Assembly (NCBI GenBank): GCA_009839405.1
Contig: VXPR01000550.1
Location: forward strand, 1 to 34,785
DNA length: 34,785 bases
DNA from: Gammaproteobacteria bacterium
Lineage (GTDB): Bacteria > Pseudomonadota > Gammaproteobacteria > Pseudomonadales > Azotimanducaceae
Direction: 5' to 3'
Shown here: in pieces, positions 1,908 to 9,842 of the stretch
How the letters are laid out: each line of letters starts with the position of its first letter
How positions within the stretch are numbered: the stretch's first letter is position 1
Translations under genes and position numbers: made by a program
The notes under the pieces: model-generated
Databases searched by the model: none
Seen by the model: the letters and a program-made list of their open reading frames with translations, nothing else
What the model was told of the DNA's origin: nothing

Positions 1908-2678
1908 TCAGTCCGTCAGGTCCGCGAACACCGGCGCGTGGTCCGAGGCGATGTGGCCGTCTTTCTTCTTGCGATACTCGCGGTCGATCTCGACGTGGGT
2001 TACGCGGCCGGCGACGTTCGCACCGCCGAGAAGCATGTCGATGCGCAGCCCCATGCCGCGATGGAATGCACCACCGCGGTAGTCCCACCACGAGAATGCC
2101 TGGGTGTCCGGGTGAAGCTGGCGATAGAGGTCGGTGAAGCCAAGCTCCAGAAGCGCCCCATAGCGCGACCGTTCTTCCTCCGTGCAGAAGATGGTGCCGT
2201 CGGCGGCCTCGCCGCGCCAGCAGTCGGCGGGTTCGGGCACGATGTTGAAATCGCCACAGAGCACGGAATCCGCACCTACACCGCCGTCCAGGAACTCGCC
2301 GAGGCTGCCGAACCAATCGAGCTTCATGGGGAAGTCGGCGTGCTCCAGAGTCTTGCCGTTGGGACAATAGACTGTAGTGAAGTCGATGCCGCCCACCCGC
2401 GCCCGCAGCAAACGGGCGCCATCGTCGTCGCGCCCCGGCAAGCCGGCGGTCGTCAAGTCGGCGTCCTCGCGACTGACGATGGCGACGCCGTTCCAGCCTT
2501 TCTGGCCGTGGTTCAGCACCTTGTAGCCGAGTTCTGCCAGCTCTTCGTGGGGAAAGTCGTCGTCGGACGCCTTGGTCTCCTGCATTCCTACGACATCCGG
2601 CTGGCGAGCCCTCAGCCAGTGCAGCACGAACTCGAGCCGTGCGCGCAAACCGTTCACGTTCCAGGTGGCGATGCGCAT
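1908..2678 (-). CDS. xthA: Exodeoxyribonuclease III
   Basis: 256 aa. MRIATWNVNGLRARL...QETK...WDYR...GLRID...SDHAPV are the hallmark Exo III / AP endonuclease (EEP fold) motifs. Confidence 0.9.
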   Translation of the reverse strand: MRIATWNVNGLRARLEFVLHWLRARQPDVVGMQETKASDDDFPHEELAELGYKVLNHGQKGWNGVAIVSREDADLTTAGLPGRDDDGARLLRARVGGIDFTTVYCPNGKTLEHADFPMKLDWFGSLGEFLDGGVGADSVLCGDFNIVPEPADCWRGEAADGTIFCTEEERSRYGALLELGFTDLYRQLHPDTQAFSWWDYRGGAFHRGMGLRIDMLLGGANVAGRVTHVEIDREYRKKKDGHIASDHAPVFADLTD

Positions 2679-2682
2679 GGCG

Positions 2683-3780
2683 TCAGTCCGACTCCGGCGT
2701 GAGGTCGGGATTCAGTTCCAGACCAAGTCCGGGACGATCGGGCAGGCGGATGATGCCGCCGTCCGGAATGATGGGCTCGGCGAAGAGATCAGCCACGGCC
2801 TCCGCTGGCCCCGTGAATTCCTCGGAAAACTCGTGCGGCCGCACGGCGTTGCGAACGGTCGCATAGGCATGAAGGCTCGCCACCAGATTCGCCCCCACGT
2901 TTGGGCTGTGCGGCATCACCACCTTGTTCGCGGCCACGCACATCTCATAGGTGCGCAGCATTTCCGAGATGCCGCCGACGTTGAGCACATCCGGCTGCAC
3001 GATGTCTGGATTGCCGAGCAGGATCATGTCGCGGATGCGCCAAGCGGAGGTCTCCTGTTCACCGGAAGAGACCGCGCAGTCGAGCGCATCCACCACTTGC
3101 TTCAGCCCCGCAAGGTCGTATTGCGGCAGCGGCTCCTCGAAGTGGGCAATGCCAATTTGCTCGAAGCGCCGCCCCTGCTCGATGGCGGTGGGAACGGAAT
3201 AGCCGTTGTTGGCGTCGAAGGAGAGCGGCACCTCGTCAGGCAGCCACTCCCGGCACGCCTCGAAGAGGGCAAAGTCCTTGCGCGGGTCGGAGTCCTGCCG
3301 GTAGTCGCGCCAGTCCATGCGAATCTTGAACGCCCGGAAGCCGCGCTCGTAGCCCTCCTGCACTTCCGCGAGCATTTCCTGCGGCGACTTGTGCCAGCCG
3401 TTGCCGCGACTCCAGTAAAGCGGAATCTCGGTGCGGAACGCGCCGCCGAGCACCGCATACAGCGGCAGCCCCGCGGCCTTGCCGGTGATGTCCCACAGCG
3501 CCACGTCCACGGCCCCCACCACTTGCGACGGCAACCGCGTCGCCCGCTGACCATCGCCGAGCGCGAGGATTTCGCGGATCACCCGAGGCTGGCACGGATC
3601 CATCCCGACGATGAGCGGCTTCACCACCTCGTCGAGGAACACCTGCATGAGCCGCTGGCTCCGGCCTGCCTCAGAGATGCCGGAAACCCCTTCATCGGTA
3701 TCCACGCGCAGAAACAGCCGGCTCCGGCCCGGATCCTTCGGCAGCCTGAGCCGCACCAGCACCACATCCGTGATCTTCAT
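2683..3780 (-). CDS. Mandelate racemase/muconate lactonizing enzyme family protein (enolase superfamily)
   Basis: Start at MKITDV (ATG 3780-3778). It has an N-terminal capping domain, then barrel motifs FKIRMDW, FDANNGY, FEEP, SGEQE and MPHS. The substrate cannot be assigned from sequence. Confidence 0.85.
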   Translation of the reverse strand: MKITDVVLVRLRLPKDPGRSRLFLRVDTDEGVSGISEAGRSQRLMQVFLDEVVKPLIVGMDPCQPRVIREILALGDGQRATRLPSQVVGAVDVALWDITGKAAGLPLYAVLGGAFRTEIPLYWSRGNGWHKSPQEMLAEVQEGYERGFRAFKIRMDWRDYRQDSDPRKDFALFEACREWLPDEVPLSFDANNGYSVPTAIEQGRRFEQIGIAHFEEPLPQYDLAGLKQVVDALDCAVSSGEQETSAWRIRDMILLGNPDIVQPDVLNVGGISEMLRTYEMCVAANKVVMPHSPNVGANLVASLHAYATVRNAVRPHEFSEEFTGPAEAVADLFAEPIIPDGGIIRLPDRPGLGLELNPDLTPESD

Positions 3781-3870
3781 CGAACCCCTCACTCTCGGAT
3801 CGCATCAGCGTAGCACCGACGGCCCCAAAGCGGGGATCGAACAAGCCAAGCCGGATGGCTCTTTGTGAAG

Positions 3871-4036
3871 TACGAGCATCGCGATACCCAAAAGAGACGG
3901 CTGTGCCTATTTAAAGTCTATTCCACGACACGAAATCATGCTTTTAGGGTAAAAAGACGACTAAACGCCTATTGCATGAAATACATTGCGTCGTGACGAT
4001 GATCGACGTATCCAATCTCGCCGACAGGAGAAGCCA
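3871..4036 (+). promoter_or_regulatory. AT-rich intergenic leader / probable promoter region of the XRE cassette
   Basis: A hand count over 3871-3990 gives about 43% G+C, against about 63% in the neighbouring genic sequence. It contains two GCCTATT direct repeats about 62 nt apart and an AGGAG RBS at 4026-4030, 6 nt before the ATG at 4037. No promoter hexamers could be assigned with confidence. Confidence 0.4.
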
Positions 4037-4990
4037 ATGACCGACCAGAGCACGGATTTGGATCCCCAAGCCCTCAAAGCGGCACGACAACGTCGAGGAA
4101 TGACTCAGGAGCAGCTAGCCCAAAGGATCGAATGCACCAAGGACACGGTCAGCCGGTGGGAGCGCGGGGTCGCAAAGGTACGTCCGCGGTTCCGTAACCG
4201 CCTGTGCGATGCCCTTTCCGTTGCGTGGAGCAAGCTCTCGAAGGCACCAGCAGAGAGCGATGAAGCCAGGGACAGGCTGTTCGGGCGGGTCCCGATCCGC
4301 GCGAGTATCCGGACACACGGGCGCACTGCGCTCAAGCTCGTGGCTCTCCGCTACGGAATCCCGGAACACCAGGTCCTTGAACTCGCGCCGCTGCTCTTTT
4401 TCGTGCTAGCCGAGCGCAGCCTGATGGCGCGGTCGCAGCGACTGAGCGAAATCGAATCTGCCTTCGAAGAGCTCGACGCCAACGTGTCGAAGAGTCTCGC
4501 CCACCTTGGACCCGTGGTTATGGCTCGAAGCATCTCGGCAGACGACGCCCTCACGAACGAGGAAAAGTCTGTCAGCCAACGGGACGTCTTCGGCCACTTG
4601 ATCGATTGGACCGCCCAAGATGAAGGGCCCTTCGTCTATTTCATCCGAGAGCTGACGGAAGACCTGCCCGACGGCTTGGAAAAGCTGGAATCGTACGACG
4701 GCACGACCGTCGACGATTACCGGTTTGCTGGCGAAAACCTCCGGCAACTCGTTGGAGAAGGCACAAATGCAACTCCAGATGAGTTGGTCGAGCAAATCTG
4801 GCGCGGTGACCTCGACCTTGGGGAGTGCATCGGCAAGAAGGCCCGCCTAAGCGAAGAGGACTACCACCACTGGCTGGATGGTGCCAGCAACGAAGCCGCC
4901 GCCGAGAGTCGGCGTCGGTGGCAAGAGCACCTCGACCTGTTTATCGATTCAGCCTCTAGCGGCGAGGACCAAAACGAGGGGCAGTCGTGA
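4037..4990 (+). CDS. XRE-family helix-turn-helix protein with a ~250-aa uncharacterised acidic C-terminal region
   Basis: The start at MTDQSTD is preceded by AGGAG. The N-terminal LKAARQRRGMTQEQLAQRIECTKDTVSRWERG is a typical HTH_3/XRE motif. I do not recognise the rest (317 aa total). No HExxH peptidase motif was seen. Confidence 0.75.
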   Translation: MTDQSTDLDPQALKAARQRRGMTQEQLAQRIECTKDTVSRWERGVAKVRPRFRNRLCDALSVAWSKLSKAPAESDEARDRLFGRVPIRASIRTHGRTALKLVALRYGIPEHQVLELAPLLFFVLAERSLMARSQRLSEIESAFEELDANVSKSLAHLGPVVMARSISADDALTNEEKSVSQRDVFGHLIDWTAQDEGPFVYFIRELTEDLPDGLEKLESYDGTTVDDYRFAGENLRQLVGEGTNATPDELVEQIWRGDLDLGECIGKKARLSEEDYHHWLDGASNEAAAESRRRWQEHLDLFIDSASSGEDQNEGQS

Positions 4991-5361
4991 GTGGCTTGGC
5001 GATCACGCGGCACGGCGCGGCTCGCATGGCACAGCGCGGAGTTCGAAAGCGCGACTTGGACTTGCTCTTGGCCTATGGCACGGACATCGGTTCTGACCGG
5101 ATCATGCTCAGGCGTCGGGAGGCGGCAAGGGCCATACGGGAACTAAAGGGCAGAGGTAGCAACGGCCATACAGAACCAGCGGTGTGGAAGTTGGTCGCTG
5201 CGGTCGAGCGGCTGGTTGGTAAGGTGATCGTCGTCGCGGACGGAGCTCTCATCACGACCTACCACCAGACGGTTCGATTCCACTCACGCCGGAGGCGGAC
5301 GAGCCAACCTATCAGTCGAAAGTTGGGCGATGCCCCAAAAGGACCTCCATTCTCCAAATGA
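4987..5361 (+). CDS. DUF4258-like protein (putative RelE/colicin-fold toxin)
   Basis: GTG start in a GTGA overlap with the upstream stop. A GAGGGG RBS lies 5 nt upstream. ITRHGAARMAQRGV near the N-terminus and ...VIVVADGALITTYH resemble the DUF4258 signature as I remember it (H..RM..RgI ... viTvy). Confidence 0.6.
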   Translation: MSGLAITRHGAARMAQRGVRKRDLDLLLAYGTDIGSDRIMLRRREAARAIRELKGRGSNGHTEPAVWKLVAAVERLVGKVIVVADGALITTYHQTVRFHSRRRRTSQPISRKLGDAPKGPPFSK

Positions 5362-5912
5362 ACGACGACAAAATCAGACCATCACAGTCCGAAAGGGACA
5401 TGGCGAGGGGCGCGCAACTGGTGGCCACTGGAATTGCAAGAGCCATGCGTGGGACACGTCCCGTAGCGAAGTCGAAAATGCGGAAAACCGGTGAGCCGCC
5501 ACCGAAATCAAGGCTCGACAGGTTCATCGGTCGGTGGCTTTGTCGGGTGTCCCTTGGTGCCCTAGCTTGGGCCGTATGGGATGTCTATGGCGGTGGAGCG
5601 TTCACCCTCTGCGTCGCCGTTTACTCAGCCTTCGAGTTCTTGCTCTGGAGGGGCCGTCGCGTGAGAGTGAAAGTGCAACGCGCCGGCGCGGCGCATATTC
5701 TCTCGCAGGGCAAATGCCCGTCCTGCGGAGTTGCACGCTCAGGACTGCCGAAAGGCCAGTTCGACGCGTGCGGCAACTGCGGAACATTCCTCGAAGGTAC
5801 CGGGTTGGGCTTGCGCCTTATGTCGGTTGAAACATGGCGGGACCTGCCGTTCGGACGGCAAGCGAAGCTATTGAAGAGGGCCGACGCTGCTACAAATGCC
5901 GTGCGACGTTAA
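5358..5912 (+). CDS. Membrane protein with two predicted TM helices and a C-terminal Cys4 zinc-ribbon
   Basis: ATGA overlap with the upstream stop. It has a basic N-terminus, then a hydrophobic stretch (LGALAWAVWDVYGGGAFTLCVAVYSAFEFLLW), then CPSCG-x13-CGNCG. Codon usage is atypical for the window (AGA, AGG, AAA, GAA and other A/T-ending codons). Confidence 0.55.
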   Translation: MNDDKIRPSQSERDMARGAQLVATGIARAMRGTRPVAKSKMRKTGEPPPKSRLDRFIGRWLCRVSLGALAWAVWDVYGGGAFTLCVAVYSAFEFLLWRGRRVRVKVQRAGAAHILSQGKCPSCGVARSGLPKGQFDACGNCGTFLEGTGLGLRLMSVETWRDLPFGRQAKLLKRADAATNAVRR

Positions 5913-6128
5913 CGCGCGCCGCGCAAATCCAAGGGTGAAACCATCTCGTTCCCTTATCGTCCACAGGTCGGGGCAGCGTCCGATCCGCTTTCGTTCTGGG
6001 CGGTCGCCTGCCGGCAGGCCACGCCCCGACTAACCATTTGGAGAATGCCGTGGTCGTTGCTGGGCGAAATGAACTTTGGAATGCTGCTTCGTCCAAGGTG
6101 CGTCCTTGCACCACGGTCGCCCGTCCGC

Positions 6129-7364
6129 CTAACGGGGAACCGCTTGCGGATCGTCCCGAAGCCGCACCGTAAGGCGATGTTCCTCCGCCATAAACTCAGG
6201 CTCCGTGCCGTTATGGGCAAGCATGCCTGGGACCACTTTGTTGCGGATGCCCATGCCTCGTGCATCCACGTAGCCGTAGTCGCGCATCACGTTCATGAGG
6301 GTTTGGTTGCGGGCATAGCGGACTCCTGCTCGCATTCGTTCGACCGTGATCGTGTTGGGTAGGCTGCCAGGACTTTCGATTTCCAGGCGGTCGGGGAACG
6401 CGTTCAGGGTGATATCGGTGCCGCGGATGCTGTAGTCCCGATGCGCAAGTGCATTGGCGATGCACTCGCGCACCACCGCCTCCGGGAACGGCCAGCGATC
6501 GACGCGGCGCATGCCGTCAAGGCGGGCCGTCGGCGTGGTGTTCAGGCGCACGAAATCCCAGGCCTTGTCCACCAGTGACGGATCGAGGAGGTAGCCGTCG
6601 ATGCCGACCAAGGGGACGATCGGGCCATGCAGGTCCTGGTCGGCGCGGGTGGCGTAGTCCGGCGCAAGCGATGGATAGCAGATCGCTCGAATCCCGGACT
6701 GCGGCAGAAACCGCCTTGGACGGGTGCCGAACAGCAACATCCCATCCACGGTGGCAACCAGTCCCTCTGGCGTTTGTGTAACGAACTCCAAATTGTGGAG
6801 CAAAGTTCCCCACTCGTTCGTATCGTCGTCATCCGGCGCACTGCCGCCAAGTACGCGGGTGAGATAGTCGCGTAGCCGGCGCAAGTCCAGTTCCTCGACG
6901 CCGGCACCGGGAACGGGCTTTACGCCGTAGTTCAGCCGACCCGCGCTTTGGTACATCCGTTCGAGCTCTTCGCTGCTCGCCTCCCGAGAGGTGCTGCCGA
7001 CGCGTACGTAGTACGTCCTGCGCTTGTTGTGAACGCGGGCATAGGGCTTGTCCGGCCCCACGCTGACCCGCACCGCCAGCACATCGCTCCCCGGCTCCGC
7101 ATTCCGCACCCAGTGCAGCGACGGGATCACCGGCGGGTCGATCTTGGCGCGGCAAAGCTCTACCACCCACTCTTCCAGGCGCGGCCGTTGTGCGCCGACG
7201 ATTCGGCCGCCGTCGTCCACGCCCAGCAACACCGTGCCGCCCATGTGGTTCAGAAACGCCGTGACTTCCCGCGCGAGATCAAAGTTCGTCACCTCATCGC
7301 GCTTGAATTCGAGACCGGAGTCCTCCCCGTCTCGGATCAGTTGCTGGAGCTCGTATGGCGTCAT
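6129..7364 (-). CDS. AlbA_2 (Schlafen-like divergent AAA) + HATPase_c_4 (RecG-C-terminal-like) domain protein
   Basis: Start at MTPYELQQL (ATG 7364-7362), with an AAGAGGA RBS 5 nt upstream. EDSGLEFKRD...AFLNHMGGTVLLGVDDGGRIVG is the AlbA_2 signature. ALAHRDYS...IESPGSLPN...RNQTLMNVMRDYGYVDARGMGI is the HATPase_c_4 region. Confidence 0.8.
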   Translation of the reverse strand: MTPYELQQLIRDGEDSGLEFKRDEVTNFDLAREVTAFLNHMGGTVLLGVDDGGRIVGAQRPRLEEWVVELCRAKIDPPVIPSLHWVRNAEPGSDVLAVRVSVGPDKPYARVHNKRRTYYVRVGSTSREASSEELERMYQSAGRLNYGVKPVPGAGVEELDLRRLRDYLTRVLGGSAPDDDDTNEWGTLLHNLEFVTQTPEGLVATVDGMLLFGTRPRRFLPQSGIRAICYPSLAPDYATRADQDLHGPIVPLVGIDGYLLDPSLVDKAWDFVRLNTTPTARLDGMRRVDRWPFPEAVVRECIANALAHRDYSIRGTDITLNAFPDRLEIESPGSLPNTITVERMRAGVRYARNQTLMNVMRDYGYVDARGMGIRNKVVPGMLAHNGTEPEFMAEEHRLTVRLRDDPQAVPR

Positions 7365-7471
7365 CTGCGTCCTCTTACGTCGCCGCGAATTATGCGACAG
7401 GCCACCCATCCAGTGGACGGCACACCGTGTACGCTGCATGATCGGGCGTTCGCCAACACGGAACAGCACCC

Positions 7472-8356
7472 ATGGGTCTTGCCTCCTACAACGCCTATCC
7501 CGATGTCGACAACCTCATGGCCGAGATCGACAAGTACGACCTCCACCAGCACATCGTGGAGCTTGAAGCCTATGGCATGACGGTGGTGCCGCCGGAGACG
7601 ATGCGGATTGCCGACGACTTCGTGGAGCGGCTCAGAGACGCCATCATCCGCACTTGCGAGAAGCGCAACGGGATAGAGATCGGCGACTACCGCACAGCGA
7701 ACGTGAAGCGGGAGCAGACGAGCAAGGGCTGGCACCTGTTGGAGGAGGACGAGGTGTTCGTCGAGGCGGCCATCAACCCGGTTAACCTCGCGCTGGTTCG
7801 GTGGCTGCTCGGGCAAAGCGCGGTCTTCTCCGGGCAGACCTGGATCATCAAGGGCCAGGGCTCGCCGGGCTTGGGGCTCCACAGCGACTCCCACGGCATC
7901 CCGCCGGGGGCCGGGCAGGTCGCGCACATGTGTAACGCCTCCTGGGTCTGCACGGACTATGCGGGGCAGGAAGACGGCCCGACGCTGTTCGTGCCGGGCA
8001 GCCATCACTACGGCCGGGCGACGCTGCCCCACGAGTCGGACCTCACCGACACGCCCTACAAGTTCGTGCCGCTCATCGCCAAGGCCGGCTCCCTCGCCAT
8101 CTGGAACGGCGCAACGTGGCACGCTTCCGCCGGCCGGACGAATCCGGGCCTCAGGGTGACGCTGGTGCAGAACTACATGCGCAGCTACATGCGCGTGCAG
8201 CACAACTACGAAGACACCTCGCCCCAACTCCTTGCCAAGTACCCGGAACTCGAACGCGTCATCGGCAAGGCGCTCTACCCCTACGAAGACCCGCAGGCAC
8301 CGGATTACACCCGCGTTGCGGGAATGATGCGCACGGGGACGGATCCGTTCGCGTAA
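7472..8356 (+). CDS. Phytanoyl-CoA dioxygenase (PhyH) family Fe(II)/2-oxoglutarate oxygenase
   Basis: 294 aa. LHSDSH (HxD), then WNGATWHAS (distal His) and a downstream R, fit the PhyH-type facial triad. An alternative internal start (MAEIDKY at 7517) is possible. Confidence 0.75.
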   Translation: MGLASYNAYPDVDNLMAEIDKYDLHQHIVELEAYGMTVVPPETMRIADDFVERLRDAIIRTCEKRNGIEIGDYRTANVKREQTSKGWHLLEEDEVFVEAAINPVNLALVRWLLGQSAVFSGQTWIIKGQGSPGLGLHSDSHGIPPGAGQVAHMCNASWVCTDYAGQEDGPTLFVPGSHHYGRATLPHESDLTDTPYKFVPLIAKAGSLAIWNGATWHASAGRTNPGLRVTLVQNYMRSYMRVQHNYEDTSPQLLAKYPELERVIGKALYPYEDPQAPDYTRVAGMMRTGTDPFA

Positions 8357-8387: not shown

Positions 8388-9842
8388 TCAAAGGCCCCTT
8401 GCCGGGGCCGGCGCCGCTGGCGCCATATGCTCGTCCCGCAATGCCTCCACGACGCGGAAGCGCACGTCGGACCAGTCGGCGAGTGTGCGGACAAAGTGCT
8501 CATCGGGAATGGGCAGATGGGTGGCATCGGCGCGTGTTTGCCCCCAGGTCGGGTCGAAGGCGTGCCAATGGCCGTCCACGGCGATTTCGTTCCAGGCGTG
8601 CGGCGCGAAGCCCTGTTGCTCAACGCTGTAGGCGATGCCGACGACTGTGCGCGCTGGCAGGCCGGCCGCGCGGGCCAGGGACGTGAGCACATCGGCGAAT
8701 TCGGAGCAGTCGCCAACGCGGTCTCGCAACGTGTCGTGAACGGTGCGCAAGGACACCTGCTCGCGATAGGAAAGGTGGCTGTGAACGAACAGCGTGAGGG
8801 CATTGGCGCGTTGCCGGGCATCGTCGAGTCCGGCGATTGCGCGCAGGGCAACCGCATGCACTTCGGCGGCATCGGCGGGATAGGTCAATGTTGCCTCGGT
8901 TCCGGCTTCGAGCTCGCGCTCCGTGGCGGGCCGAGTCCGTAGCGAGTCGCCGATCAGCCGCCTCTCTCCCCCGACCATTTCGGATTCGCCCGGCCAAGGC
9001 AACGCCTCGCTCGCGGCCAGCACGAGGCGCGTCAACTCGTCCGGGCGATCGATGCCCGGTGTTGCCGGCGCGAGCCACCACCCGGCGGCAAACGGCGAGG
9101 CGCCCACGCCTTCCGCATCGCGCCACGCGAGCGCCATGTCGGCACTGGCCACGCGATCAATGGTGAAGAGCGGCGGCAAGGCTAGTCCCTCGGGCACCAG
9201 ATCTGCATCCAGGCGGATGCGGGTCTCGTCCAGCCGACCGTCTCGGCCGACAACGACACTGCCGCCGGAGGCAGCGCCGGGTTCATGTACACGCCAGACC
9301 GTGCGCCGCAGCGCCAGCCGGTCGAAATCCACCGACTGCACCGCGTGCGTTTGCCCAGGCCGCCTAGGGGCTGCCTGCAGCCAGCGTTCGAGCGCGAGAT
9401 AGCCCGCAAGATCGAAGTCGAAGTCGGCCACGGTTTCCCGCACCGCGCCGTCCTCTTCGATCCTTGCAACGCCATCCGCCAAGTACACCGTCGCCTTCGC
9501 CGTGCCGCCCGCGAACCTCGCGTGTCTGGCAAGCACAAGCCGGTGTGGAGGCGCGGCGCCGAAAACCAGTTCGTCCTCCATGCGCGTCGCTGGCGCGGCA
9601 GCCAGCGCAAACTCCAACTCGCTGTAGAAGCGAAAGCCCTCCCGCGTGTGCTCGGCAACGGTGCGGTAGTGCCCCACTGGGCGATGCCGCAATTGCACCG
9701 CATACCATCGTTCGCCAGCCATGCGGACCGCGAGGAGGCCCTCGGGCGTCGTCGGCAACGCCGCCGAAGGCAAGAGCCACCACGCTCCCCCCGTCACGCC
9801 GACAAGCAAGAGCGCGACGCCGACGCCGATTCGTACCCTCAT
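8388..9842 (-). CDS. Transglutaminase-like domain protein (putative secreted cysteine protease/transglutaminase)
   Basis: N-terminal signal-like MRVRIGVGVALLLVGVTGG. The C-terminal core is GDCSEFADVLTSLARAAGLPAR ... HAWNEIAVDGHWHAFDPT (Cys-His-Asp transglutaminase core). Confidence 0.8.
   Translation of the reverse strand: MRVRIGVGVALLLVGVTGGAWWLLPSAALPTTPEGLLAVRMAGERWYAVQLRHRPVGHYRTVAEHTREGFRFYSELEFALAAAPATRMEDELVFGAAPPHRLVLARHARFAGGTAKATVYLADGVARIEEDGAVRETVADFDFDLAGYLALERWLQAAPRRPGQTHAVQSVDFDRLALRRTVWRVHEPGAASGGSVVVGRDGRLDETRIRLDADLVPEGLALPPLFTIDRVASADMALAWRDAEGVGASPFAAGWWLAPATPGIDRPDELTRLVLAASEALPWPGESEMVGGERRLIGDSLRTRPATERELEAGTEATLTYPADAAEVHAVALRAIAGLDDARQRANALTLFVHSHLSYREQVSLRTVHDTLRDRVGDCSEFADVLTSLARAAGLPARTVVGIAYSVEQQGFAPHAWNEIAVDGHWHAFDPTWGQTRADATHLPIPDEHFVRTLADWSDVRFRVVEALRDEHMAPAAPAPARGL

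Follow-up and report, generated by a model that had tools for sequence, protein, structure and literature searches.

Does a chain of three overlapping genes encode a single three-component system, or has a further gene been added to a smaller, conserved module? The question is raised by a cassette at positions 4037-5912 (plus strand) of a 34,785-nucleotide (nt) stretch of contig VXPR01000550.1 (GenBank assembly GCA_009839405.1), from a gammaproteobacterium of the Azotimanducaceae; this whole stretch is called the window below. Gene 1 (4037-4990, +) starts with ATG behind a Shine-Dalgarno sequence, AGGAGA (4026-4031), and encodes a protein of 317 amino acids (aa) with an XRE-family helix-turn-helix (HTH) and an acidic C-terminal domain. 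Gene 2 (4987-5361, +), with a GTG start and the ribosome-binding site (RBS) GAGGGG (4976-4981), encodes a basic, DUF4258/Ntox49-like protein of 124 aa. Gene 3 (5358-5912, +) is an orphan open reading frame (ORF) of 184 aa with an ATG start. A first-pass annotation, made from the sequence alone, had proposed a three-component toxin-antitoxin (TA) or abortive-infection-type module lying next to an AlbA_2/Schlafen-like gene. The three ORFs, the stop/start overlaps on the plus strand (GTGA at 4987-4990 between genes 1 and 2, ATGA at 5358-5361 between genes 2 and 3) and the CPSCG-x13-CGNCG motif of gene 3 are located exactly as it stated; its assignment to a TA or defence module stands for genes 1 and 2, on the evidence of synteny, overlap and mobile or defence contexts, and falls for gene 3 as a component. 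The answer that we favour, with a probability of about one half, is an autonomous type II TA-like pair, made up of genes 1 and 2 and spread horizontally, to which gene 3 is a lineage-specific addition.

The gene 1 and gene 2 pair

The pair recurs in about 38 loci (designated here by L numbers), mostly with a 4-nt overlap. A synteny scan that took the gene 1 alignment as its query, with one genome per species, found 24 loci; wherever gene 1 is readable, a gene 2 homolog lies directly downstream (22 of 22 loci: L004-L020, L021, L022, L023 and L025), and the pair is present in 24 of the first 27 loci fetched. The 4-nt overlap is found in 16 of the 24 tabulated pairs, the window included, and again in the pairs of L044, L047, L051 and L054-L056. 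When the ORFs of the flanks are compared all against all, genes 1 and 2 emerge as the only genes common to most loci. The hosts, represented by metagenome-assembled genomes (MAGs) as well as cultured strains, are Alpha- and Gammaproteobacteria, Chloroflexi and Acidimicrobiia, a patchy distribution over at least four phyla; labels such as Poriferihabitaceae, and the SB06xx bins, which we believe to be sponge MAGs, suggest a sponge habitat for some.

Some of this DNA is mobile. Plasmids of four cultured species carry the pair: Ensifer adhaerens (an unannotated pair at about 10.8-12.0 kb of pCasidaAB), Sphingopyxis macrogoltabida (WP_145923706/WP_054735666), Blastomonas fulva and Rhodovastum atsumiense (WP_150041021/WP_150041022). 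It is also present on further metagenome contigs (L001-L003, L028-L030, L040, L054-L056) and on IMG/VR contigs (L044, L047, L051), where the genes beside it look gene-transfer-agent-like. Integrases or recombinases lie near the pair in L001, L005, L012, L022, L028, L033 and L036, and its other neighbours include transposases, DruA, HerA, restriction-modification (RM) genes, an OLD-like ATPase and a NERD-UvrD helicase. In L003 (1-3377, corresponding to window positions 2352-5150), the pair occupies the same chromosomal site as in the window, beside a gene of the MR_MLE enolase superfamily. The protein product of that flanking gene is about 90% identical to its window counterpart, as against only 55-60% for the pair, and the sequence past gene 2 is unrelated to that of the window. 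The divergence of the L003 pair reflects either fast evolution or replacement at a hotspot. Gene decay is also seen, as a truncated gene 2 behind a full gene 1 in L029 and as orphan gene 1 fragments in L024-L027, and this pattern, like the divergence of the L003 pair, is counted in favour of a TA pair. A TA or defence-island identity is supported by strictly conserved synteny and overlap, by plasmid carriage, by integrase and defence neighbours and by the patchy, cross-phylum spread.

Gene 1 combines a familiar domain with an unfamiliar one. Pfam recognises HTH_31 (PF13560; E 2e-12, 47.6 bits against a cut-off of 27) and HTH_3 (PF01381; E 2e-10, 40.7 bits against a cut-off of 23), both over aa 13-61 and with scores that pass the gathering cut-off for an XRE-family HTH; the domain covers nt 4067-4222 (aa 11-62). 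Profile matches to this HTH include PezA (4e-5), HipB and NCBIfam antitoxin models, and its nearest structural neighbours by Foldseek are RM controller proteins and CapH, with target-normalised TM-scores of 0.65-0.87 to C.BclI, CapH-N and SinR. Pfam, NCBIfam, PADLOC and PHROGs recognise aa 11-62 alone and leave the remaining ~250 aa unmatched, and searches of the PDB by sequence profile and by Foldseek likewise return HTH matches only, in agreement with the earlier description of gene 1 as an XRE protein whose C-terminal region could not be placed. This region is nevertheless conserved across homologs as an acidic domain from about aa 90 onward (nt 4305-4987). Among 64 gene 1 homologs at E<=1e-3, 63 match over nearly the full length; they measure 306-379 aa and are 37-59% identical, save one 99%-identical strain copy, and their alignment reveals invariant motifs outside the HTH (LAPLLF..AE.SL..R, RDVFG, EGPF and C...Y..W). 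In an AlphaFold2 model built with the homolog alignment (confidence score, pLDDT, of 83), the HTH is followed by a low-confidence linker (~aa 68-92) and then by an antiparallel helical hairpin (110-153, 155-180), a beta-hairpin (214-230) and a helical bundle that closes with a long helix (273-307). This acidic, mostly helical domain of ~230 aa matches no Pfam or NCBIfam family, PDB sequence or PDB fold. A Carnobacterium plasmid protein (H8) that matched gene 1 was set aside: it looks like an RNPP/TPR-type HTH regulator and does not carry the family motifs.

Gene 2 is harder to place when it is taken alone. A k-mer search with the single sequence returns three proteins, one of them the window's own; the family exceeds 75 proteins once genes downstream of gene 1 homologs are recovered. 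Against the Pfam DUF4258 model (PF14076) the window protein reaches E 0.01 and 16.5 bits over profile positions 1-27 of 71. The same model is matched by 21 of 22 gene 2 homologs, mostly weakly (best E 9e-6), with a single homolog, from L016, passing the gathering score at 26.3 bits. A canonical DUF4258 set was sought on plasmids with a made-up consensus seed, and one annotated protein was obtained; against this single template, a PGAP-annotated DUF4258 protein of Athalassotoga, hhalign scores the gene 2 family at 74% probability (E 2.8e-5, 65 columns). The two align at both ends, in the N-terminal helix (H..RM..R.I) and in the C-terminal hairpin ('vVVdG.liTaY'), while a helical insert of 25-45 aa, specific to the gene 2 family and located between strands 2 and 3, is looped out. 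Across 50 family sequences H9, R13, Q16 and R17 are invariant, and T90 and Y92 are conserved in at least 90%. The Ntox49 signature of a conserved His and a basic residue, 'H, [KR]' (PMC3482391), is thereby present in the N-terminal helix of the gene 2 family; DUF4258 overlaps Ntox49 and belongs to the colicin-like branch (bioRxiv 10.64898/2026.08.28.747851), and is listed among the BECR-fold TA toxins, with the gene order antitoxin, then toxin (PMC11980606). Membership of gene 2 in DUF4258 is supported at the level of family profiles only. The AlphaFold2 model (pLDDT 82) ends in a disordered tail rich in Arg; before the tail its topology is b-a-a-b-b-[a-a]-b-b, an order of secondary structures that is compatible with the BECR fold; by manual count the protein carries ~27 Arg/Lys against 10 Asp/Glu. 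On the RefSeq plasmids, e.g., Ensifer pCasidaAB and the Blastomonas plasmid, members of the gene 2 family are either annotated as 'hypothetical protein' or missed.

From the HTH, the complementary charges of the two products and the order of their genes, we infer growth inhibition, neutralisation and autoregulation, which would proceed as follows. When free, the gene 2 protein would act as a BECR-type nuclease toxin that cleaves RNA or, less likely, DNA, with a putative active site formed by the first helix (His9, Arg13, Gln16, Arg17) and by Thr90 and Tyr92 on the last strand. Gene 1, presumably translated from the same mRNA just before gene 2, would neutralise the toxin by direct binding through its acidic ~230-aa C-terminal domain, and its N-terminal XRE HTH would repress the operon. 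Gene 3 would have been picked up at the module's variable 3' end, and the core mechanism would have no need of it.

Several observations weigh against such a TA pair. An antitoxin of 317 aa with a large folded domain is atypical. The window's gene 2 lies below the 25-bit gathering cut-off of the Pfam DUF4258 model, and the resemblance to DUF4258 proposed in the first-pass annotation holds as homology, while the RelE/colicin-like fold that came with it finds no support from Foldseek: against the PDB the best E is 0.69 with TM-scores <=0.26 and no match to RelE, colicin or CdiA-CT, and against BFVD the only match is marginal (E 0.023, an unnamed 69-aa protein). The helical insert and the tail may defeat structure search, and the BECR fold of gene 2 is supported by sequence profiles and predicted topology, unconfirmed by structure comparison. 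DUF4258 is itself 'undescribed in the literature', with no DUF4258 toxin tested experimentally (PMC11980606). In L022 (3764-6929), a DDE transposase gene (4507-5817) splits gene 1, leaving the HTH part upstream and, downstream, a 232-aa C-domain ORF with its own ATG; an 89-aa gene 2 variant remains intact, in 4-nt overlap with the C-domain ORF. Intact versions of this subfamily, of 305 aa and 89 aa, are found in L054-L056. Distant gene 2-like proteins also occur with no long HTH protein, in L041 (4001-7932), L046 (4004-6239) and L050 (4001-6052) and, standing alone, in L042; together with the split gene 1 of L022, they are unexpected for a potent toxin that depends on its partner. Lastly, the tight coupling of a third gene in about a quarter of the loci suggests that the pair may serve a larger unit.

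Some of these observations would fit a purely regulatory pair, made up of a transcription factor (gene 1) and a small, basic, non-toxic nucleic-acid-binding co-regulator (gene 2), e.g., an anti-repressor or a controller of mobile-element or RM genes, with no toxin at all. The high positive charge and disordered Arg-rich tail of gene 2, the missing structural match to known RNase toxins, the survival of gene 2 beside a gene 1 split by an insertion sequence and the structural proximity of the gene 1 HTH to RM controllers and CapH all point this way. So do the gene 2-like proteins of L041, L046 and L050, whose genes, much as those of controller proteins do, either immediately precede or overlap large N6-adenine methyltransferase or type IIG-like genes (in L050 between a SNF2-type helicase gene and the methyltransferase gene). 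Yet the invariant His/Arg/Gln/Arg set and the Thr-x-Tyr on the last strand have the look of a catalytic site more than of a simple DNA-binding surface, profile homology connects gene 2 to DUF4258/Ntox49, a toxin domain of polymorphic toxins, and in half of the loci there is nothing obvious nearby to regulate. On balance a regulatory pair seems quite improbable, and a type II TA-like pair is preferred to it.

Gene 3 and the variable 3' end of the module

The third gene of the window is a different matter. When 1.84 billion representative proteins were searched exhaustively with gene 3 (phmmer), the only returns were gene 3 itself and one spurious match. The latter, P0142 (E 1.7e-14), is a 6124-aa repeat protein whose score is inflated by 12 copies of a 30-aa motif and whose Cys residues are unaligned with those of gene 3; it was rejected as a relative. 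Nor does tblastn (E<=1) find a match to gene 3 in any of the 27 loci fetched first. Both gene 3 and the gene 2/gene 3 overlap are limited to one species, represented by the window and two contigs that are ~97.6% identical to it over the cassette region, L037 (GCA_009838905.1, VXQQ01000277.1) and L038. Since no homolog exists among 1.84 billion representative proteins, gene 3 cannot be a conserved component of the system: it is a lineage-specific add-on outside the conserved module. The conserved three-component system envisaged at first is therefore contradicted, with gene 3 homologs absent everywhere searched and from all other loci, and the gene-neighbourhood survey, which had been set beforehand as the test of that idea, finds that the synteny of the three genes is not conserved. 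The 'three-component system' is corrected to a conserved two-gene module accompanied by an orphan gene.

Whether gene 3 is translated at all is a separate question, one that does not compete with a TA identity of the pair. The ORF could be non-coding, either a frame that stays open by chance in GC-rich sequence or the relic of an insertion that has decayed, which would make the cassette bicistronic. Besides the lack of homologs, such an origin would explain why gene 3 has the weakest codon-position signal of the three genes (GC content 0.64 at third codon positions, GC3, and 0.56 at second positions, GC2), why its Shine-Dalgarno-like AAGGA lies as far as ~14 nt from the ATG and why the NCBI annotation of the near-identical L037 omits genes 2 and 3: the ~1.1 kb without gene calls (L037:5076-6213) corresponds exactly to these two genes. 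Long spurious ORFs are, moreover, plentiful in the window. Against this, a 184-codon open frame at 60% GC is itself unlikely (by a rough estimate, ~0.3% per frame), the signal of gene 3 is in the correct frame, its GC3 being the highest of the three forward frames, the ATGA overlap is present, and the gene predictions made for L038 by the ENA caller include both gene 2 and gene 3. The frame also holds a clean CxxC-x13-CxxC (C120-P-S-C123-G, 13 residues, C138-G-N-C141-G; nt 5715-5783, +) after two hydrophobic segments, read by eye, with positive-inside flanks (nt 5526-5594 and 5598-5648, +; ~aa 57-79 and 81-97). Gene 3 differs from the window by one synonymous change each in L037 and L038; with one difference, strain-level dN/dS has no power, and the synonymous nature of the change counts for correspondingly little. 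A non-coding origin is somewhat unlikely in our judgement; gene 3 is likely a real protein-coding gene, and its product is probably a small, species-specific membrane zinc-ribbon protein.

Other lineages attach other genes at this position. A tightly coupled, co-directional third gene follows gene 2 in about 9-10 loci (L002, L004, L007, L008, L013, L040, L044, L047 and L051). It is a SeqA_N-like gene with a RAMA domain in L004, L007, L008 and L040 (sub-threshold in Pfam, matching PDC-S14 in PADLOC), a related SeqA-like 'GWW' type in L013 and, with a 4-nt overlap, in L044, L047 and L051, and an OLD/AriA/GajA-like ATPase gene that starts 6 nt past gene 2 in L002, the source of the closest gene 2 homolog. 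At greater distances, an OLD/AriA/GajA-like ATPase gene lies ~190 nt past gene 2 in L001, and a NERD-UvrD defence candidate ~240 nt downstream in L036. The gene 3 of the window resembles none of the third genes of other loci. In fairness to the first-pass annotation, other lineages do have cassettes of three tightly coupled genes, with third genes that differ from gene 3 and are unrelated to it.

Could the pair then be the constant part of a modular three-part defence system, a front end made of a regulator or sensor and a small nuclease or adaptor to which exchangeable third components are attached, with gene 3 as the working component in the window? The coupled SeqA_N+RAMA, 'GWW' and OLD-like ATPase genes and the NERD-UvrD candidate would be such components, and a weakly matched DUF4258/RAMA fusion in L040 and the gene 2-like proteins directly upstream of N6-methyltransferase genes would be further links; gene 3 itself is ATGA-coupled and kept in both strain-level contigs. 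On the other side, in about 20 of the ~38 loci gene 2 is not followed by a co-directional gene, the third genes come from unrelated families of which none is like gene 3, gene 3 has no homologs among the representative proteins, and PADLOC models, which like those of NCBIfam and PHROGs return nothing for genes 2 and 3, recognise neither as a defence component. A front-end role is unlikely, and the loci that lack a third gene count in favour of a self-contained TA-like pair. A bolder version is more doubtful still: the pair would be the core of an unrecognised modular defence or conflict system, in which the 3' slot is occupied by SeqA_N/RAMA-type proteins that read DNA modification, OLD-like ATPases, NERD-UvrD helicases or, in the species of the window, a membrane zinc-ribbon protein, the gene 1 domain is a sensor that releases the nuclease on infection, and the whole has spread horizontally across phyla among co-resident symbionts, possibly of sponges. 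Should it prove true, the interest of the locus would be higher.

Two of the three-gene arrangements merit description in their own right. In L044 (2914-4809), L047 (2985-4800) and L051 (3004-4803), a long XRE gene, a gene 2-like gene and a gene for a 172-aa 'GWW' protein follow one another with 4-nt overlaps and in the same placement, next to a conserved gene that we take, without a family search, for an RcGTA-type DUF2163-like tail gene; an NlpC/P60-like peptidase gene flanks the other side of the module in L044 and L047. The three-gene 'GWW' module seems to have been inserted repeatedly into gene-transfer-agent-like clusters of Alphaproteobacteria. In L040 (2990-6025), the long XRE gene and gene 2 are followed by genes for a SeqA_N+RAMA protein (204 aa), the 146-aa fusion and a 122-aa DUF4258 paralog. 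The matches of the 146-aa protein are weak at both ends (DUF4258 at the N-terminus, E 0.019; RAMA at the C-terminus, E 0.005), and L040 may provide a domain-fusion link between a DUF4258-like nuclease domain and RAMA, which is restriction/methylase-associated.

The interest of the pair lies on both sides of the gene 1/gene 2 junction. In the literature searched, no member of the DUF4258/Ntox49 toxins has been studied experimentally in a TA context; the gene 2 subfamily escapes Pfam, NCBIfam and PADLOC, and was passed over in the NCBI annotation of a sister contig; and its partner, gene 1, has a large conserved domain with no known relative. Some of the bacteria that carry the pair are in culture and amenable to experiment (Ensifer adhaerens Casida A, Sphingopyxis macrogoltabida 203, Rhodovastum atsumiense G2-11), which makes the proposed toxin, antitoxin and defence roles directly testable. 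The recurrent association of the pair with RAMA/SeqA-like and further defence genes could inform the study of gene flow and phage defence in sponge-linked communities.

Local context of the cassette

The cassette forms a compositionally foreign islet, as had been noted at first sight: its GC content is ~0.60 against 0.65-0.68 in the flanks, and the GC3 of its genes is 0.64-0.71 against 0.82-0.89 in flanking housekeeping genes. The start codons of genes 1 and 2 are supported because the homolog alignments open at identical residues. The intergenic region upstream of gene 1 (3793-4036), which contains the gene 1 Shine-Dalgarno sequence, is the presumed promoter/operator; a promoter scan of this region reveals no sigma-70 consensus site, a repeat search upstream of gene 1 no convincing operator palindrome, and an alignment with L003 little conservation, with only a short TTAA-GTCTA-like block kept. 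A terminator-like stem-loop with a T-rich tail (5966-5995, +) lies 54 nt past the gene 3 stop; it is weak evidence of termination, as such sites are no commoner than in shuffled controls (3 against a mean of 2.0). An Rfam scan of 3500-7600 finds no RNA family.

Downstream, the convergent neighbour (6129-7469, -) is, as first described, an AlbA_2/Schlafen-like gene, with SLFN_AlbA_2 and HATPase_c_4 domains by Pfam. The suggestion that it might belong with the cassette is not borne out: it is not co-conserved with the pair in other loci, and between strains it has diverged far more than the cassette has. Compared with L037 and L038, 4.7% of its sites differ (6129-7364, -; 41 synonymous and 17 non-synonymous changes), whereas the three-gene cassette differs at only 0.2-0.8%. 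Given this unequal divergence, the cassette and the Schlafen-like gene do not share a recent history: either the cassette has swept or been transferred, or the Schlafen-like gene has diversified. The Schlafen-like gene is rejected as a member of the system. The listed GTG start of the Schlafen-like ORF, at 7469, lies only 2 nt from the start of a divergent PhyH-like gene, at 7472. As its AlbA_2 domain starts at aa 49 and an ATG is found at codon 36, the true start is probably near 7364, which would leave a divergent promoter region of ~107 nt (7365-7471).

A second variable spot lies near the cassette. Synteny with L037 and L038 stops just past the PhyH-like gene (7472-8356), at about window position 8388; beyond this point the two contigs carry a 75-83-aa ORF and a gene for a 1038-aa ResIII-type helicase (L037:8606-10075, L038:3885-5749), and the window has instead a 484-aa minus-strand ORF (8388-9842).

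Comparison with known systems

The closest parallels to gene 1 are XRE-HTH antitoxins such as PezA, HipB, HigA and MqsA, with which it shares the XRE HTH, a position upstream of and overlapping a putative toxin gene and the role of acidic partner to a basic toxin. It differs from them in being 2-4 times longer and in having a folded C-terminal domain of ~230 aa unlike known antitoxin domains. Resemblance to MqsA in particular is limited to the HTH: gene 1 scores 27.5 bits against the MqsA-type model (TIGR03830; cut-off 61.8) and has no zinc ribbon of its own, the Cys4 motif of the cassette being located in gene 3.

RosmerTA offers a long first gene with an HTH (RmrA, ~370-400 aa), a small effector gene next to it and an occurrence in defence islands. 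RmrA carries a peptidase domain; gene 1 has, by inspection, no HExxH and matches no Pfam peptidase family, its PADLOC matches to RmrA are confined to aa 4-97, i.e., to the HTH, and gene 2 has no RmrT match in PADLOC. The pair thus falls outside RosmerTA. Tripartite TA operons (PaaR2-PaaA2-ParE2, omega-epsilon-zeta and the HigBA-chaperone TAC) resemble the cassette in their three small, co-directional and often overlapping genes, which include one DNA-binding regulator and one BECR or other toxin. All three genes of such operons are co-conserved; in contrast, the third gene of the window is an orphan, and in most loci the two-gene core stands alone.

A membrane element, a BECR-type toxin and an upstream HTH or RHH regulator share one operon in the membrane-associated ToxM/ToxR systems (Gerdes, 2025; PMC11980606). 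There the transmembrane segment is fused to the toxin; in the window the predicted transmembrane/zinc-ribbon protein is separate and not conserved. Gene 2, for its part, is most like the DUF4258/Ntox49 toxins, e.g., that of the DUF4258-DUF2283 pair WP_269473951/WP_161849055 of Athalassotoga pATS2: both are small, belong to two-gene overlapping operons on mobile DNA, share an N-terminal helix motif (H-x3-R-M-x2-R-G-I) and a C-terminal hairpin ('vVV-dG-liTaY'), and have a predicted role as RNase toxins (PMC3482391; PMC11980606). The gene 2 family departs from them in the sub-cut-off score of the window protein, in its helical insert and basic disordered tail and in lacking confirmation by Foldseek, and its partner is an upstream 317-aa XRE protein rather than a downstream DUF2283 protein. 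Taken together, RosmerTA, MqsA-type and tripartite systems each fail in a defining feature, and the module is most like a type II TA system that joins an XRE antitoxin to a BECR toxin. What is new is a divergent, unannotated DUF4258-like subfamily that is tied to a novel domain on the antitoxin side.

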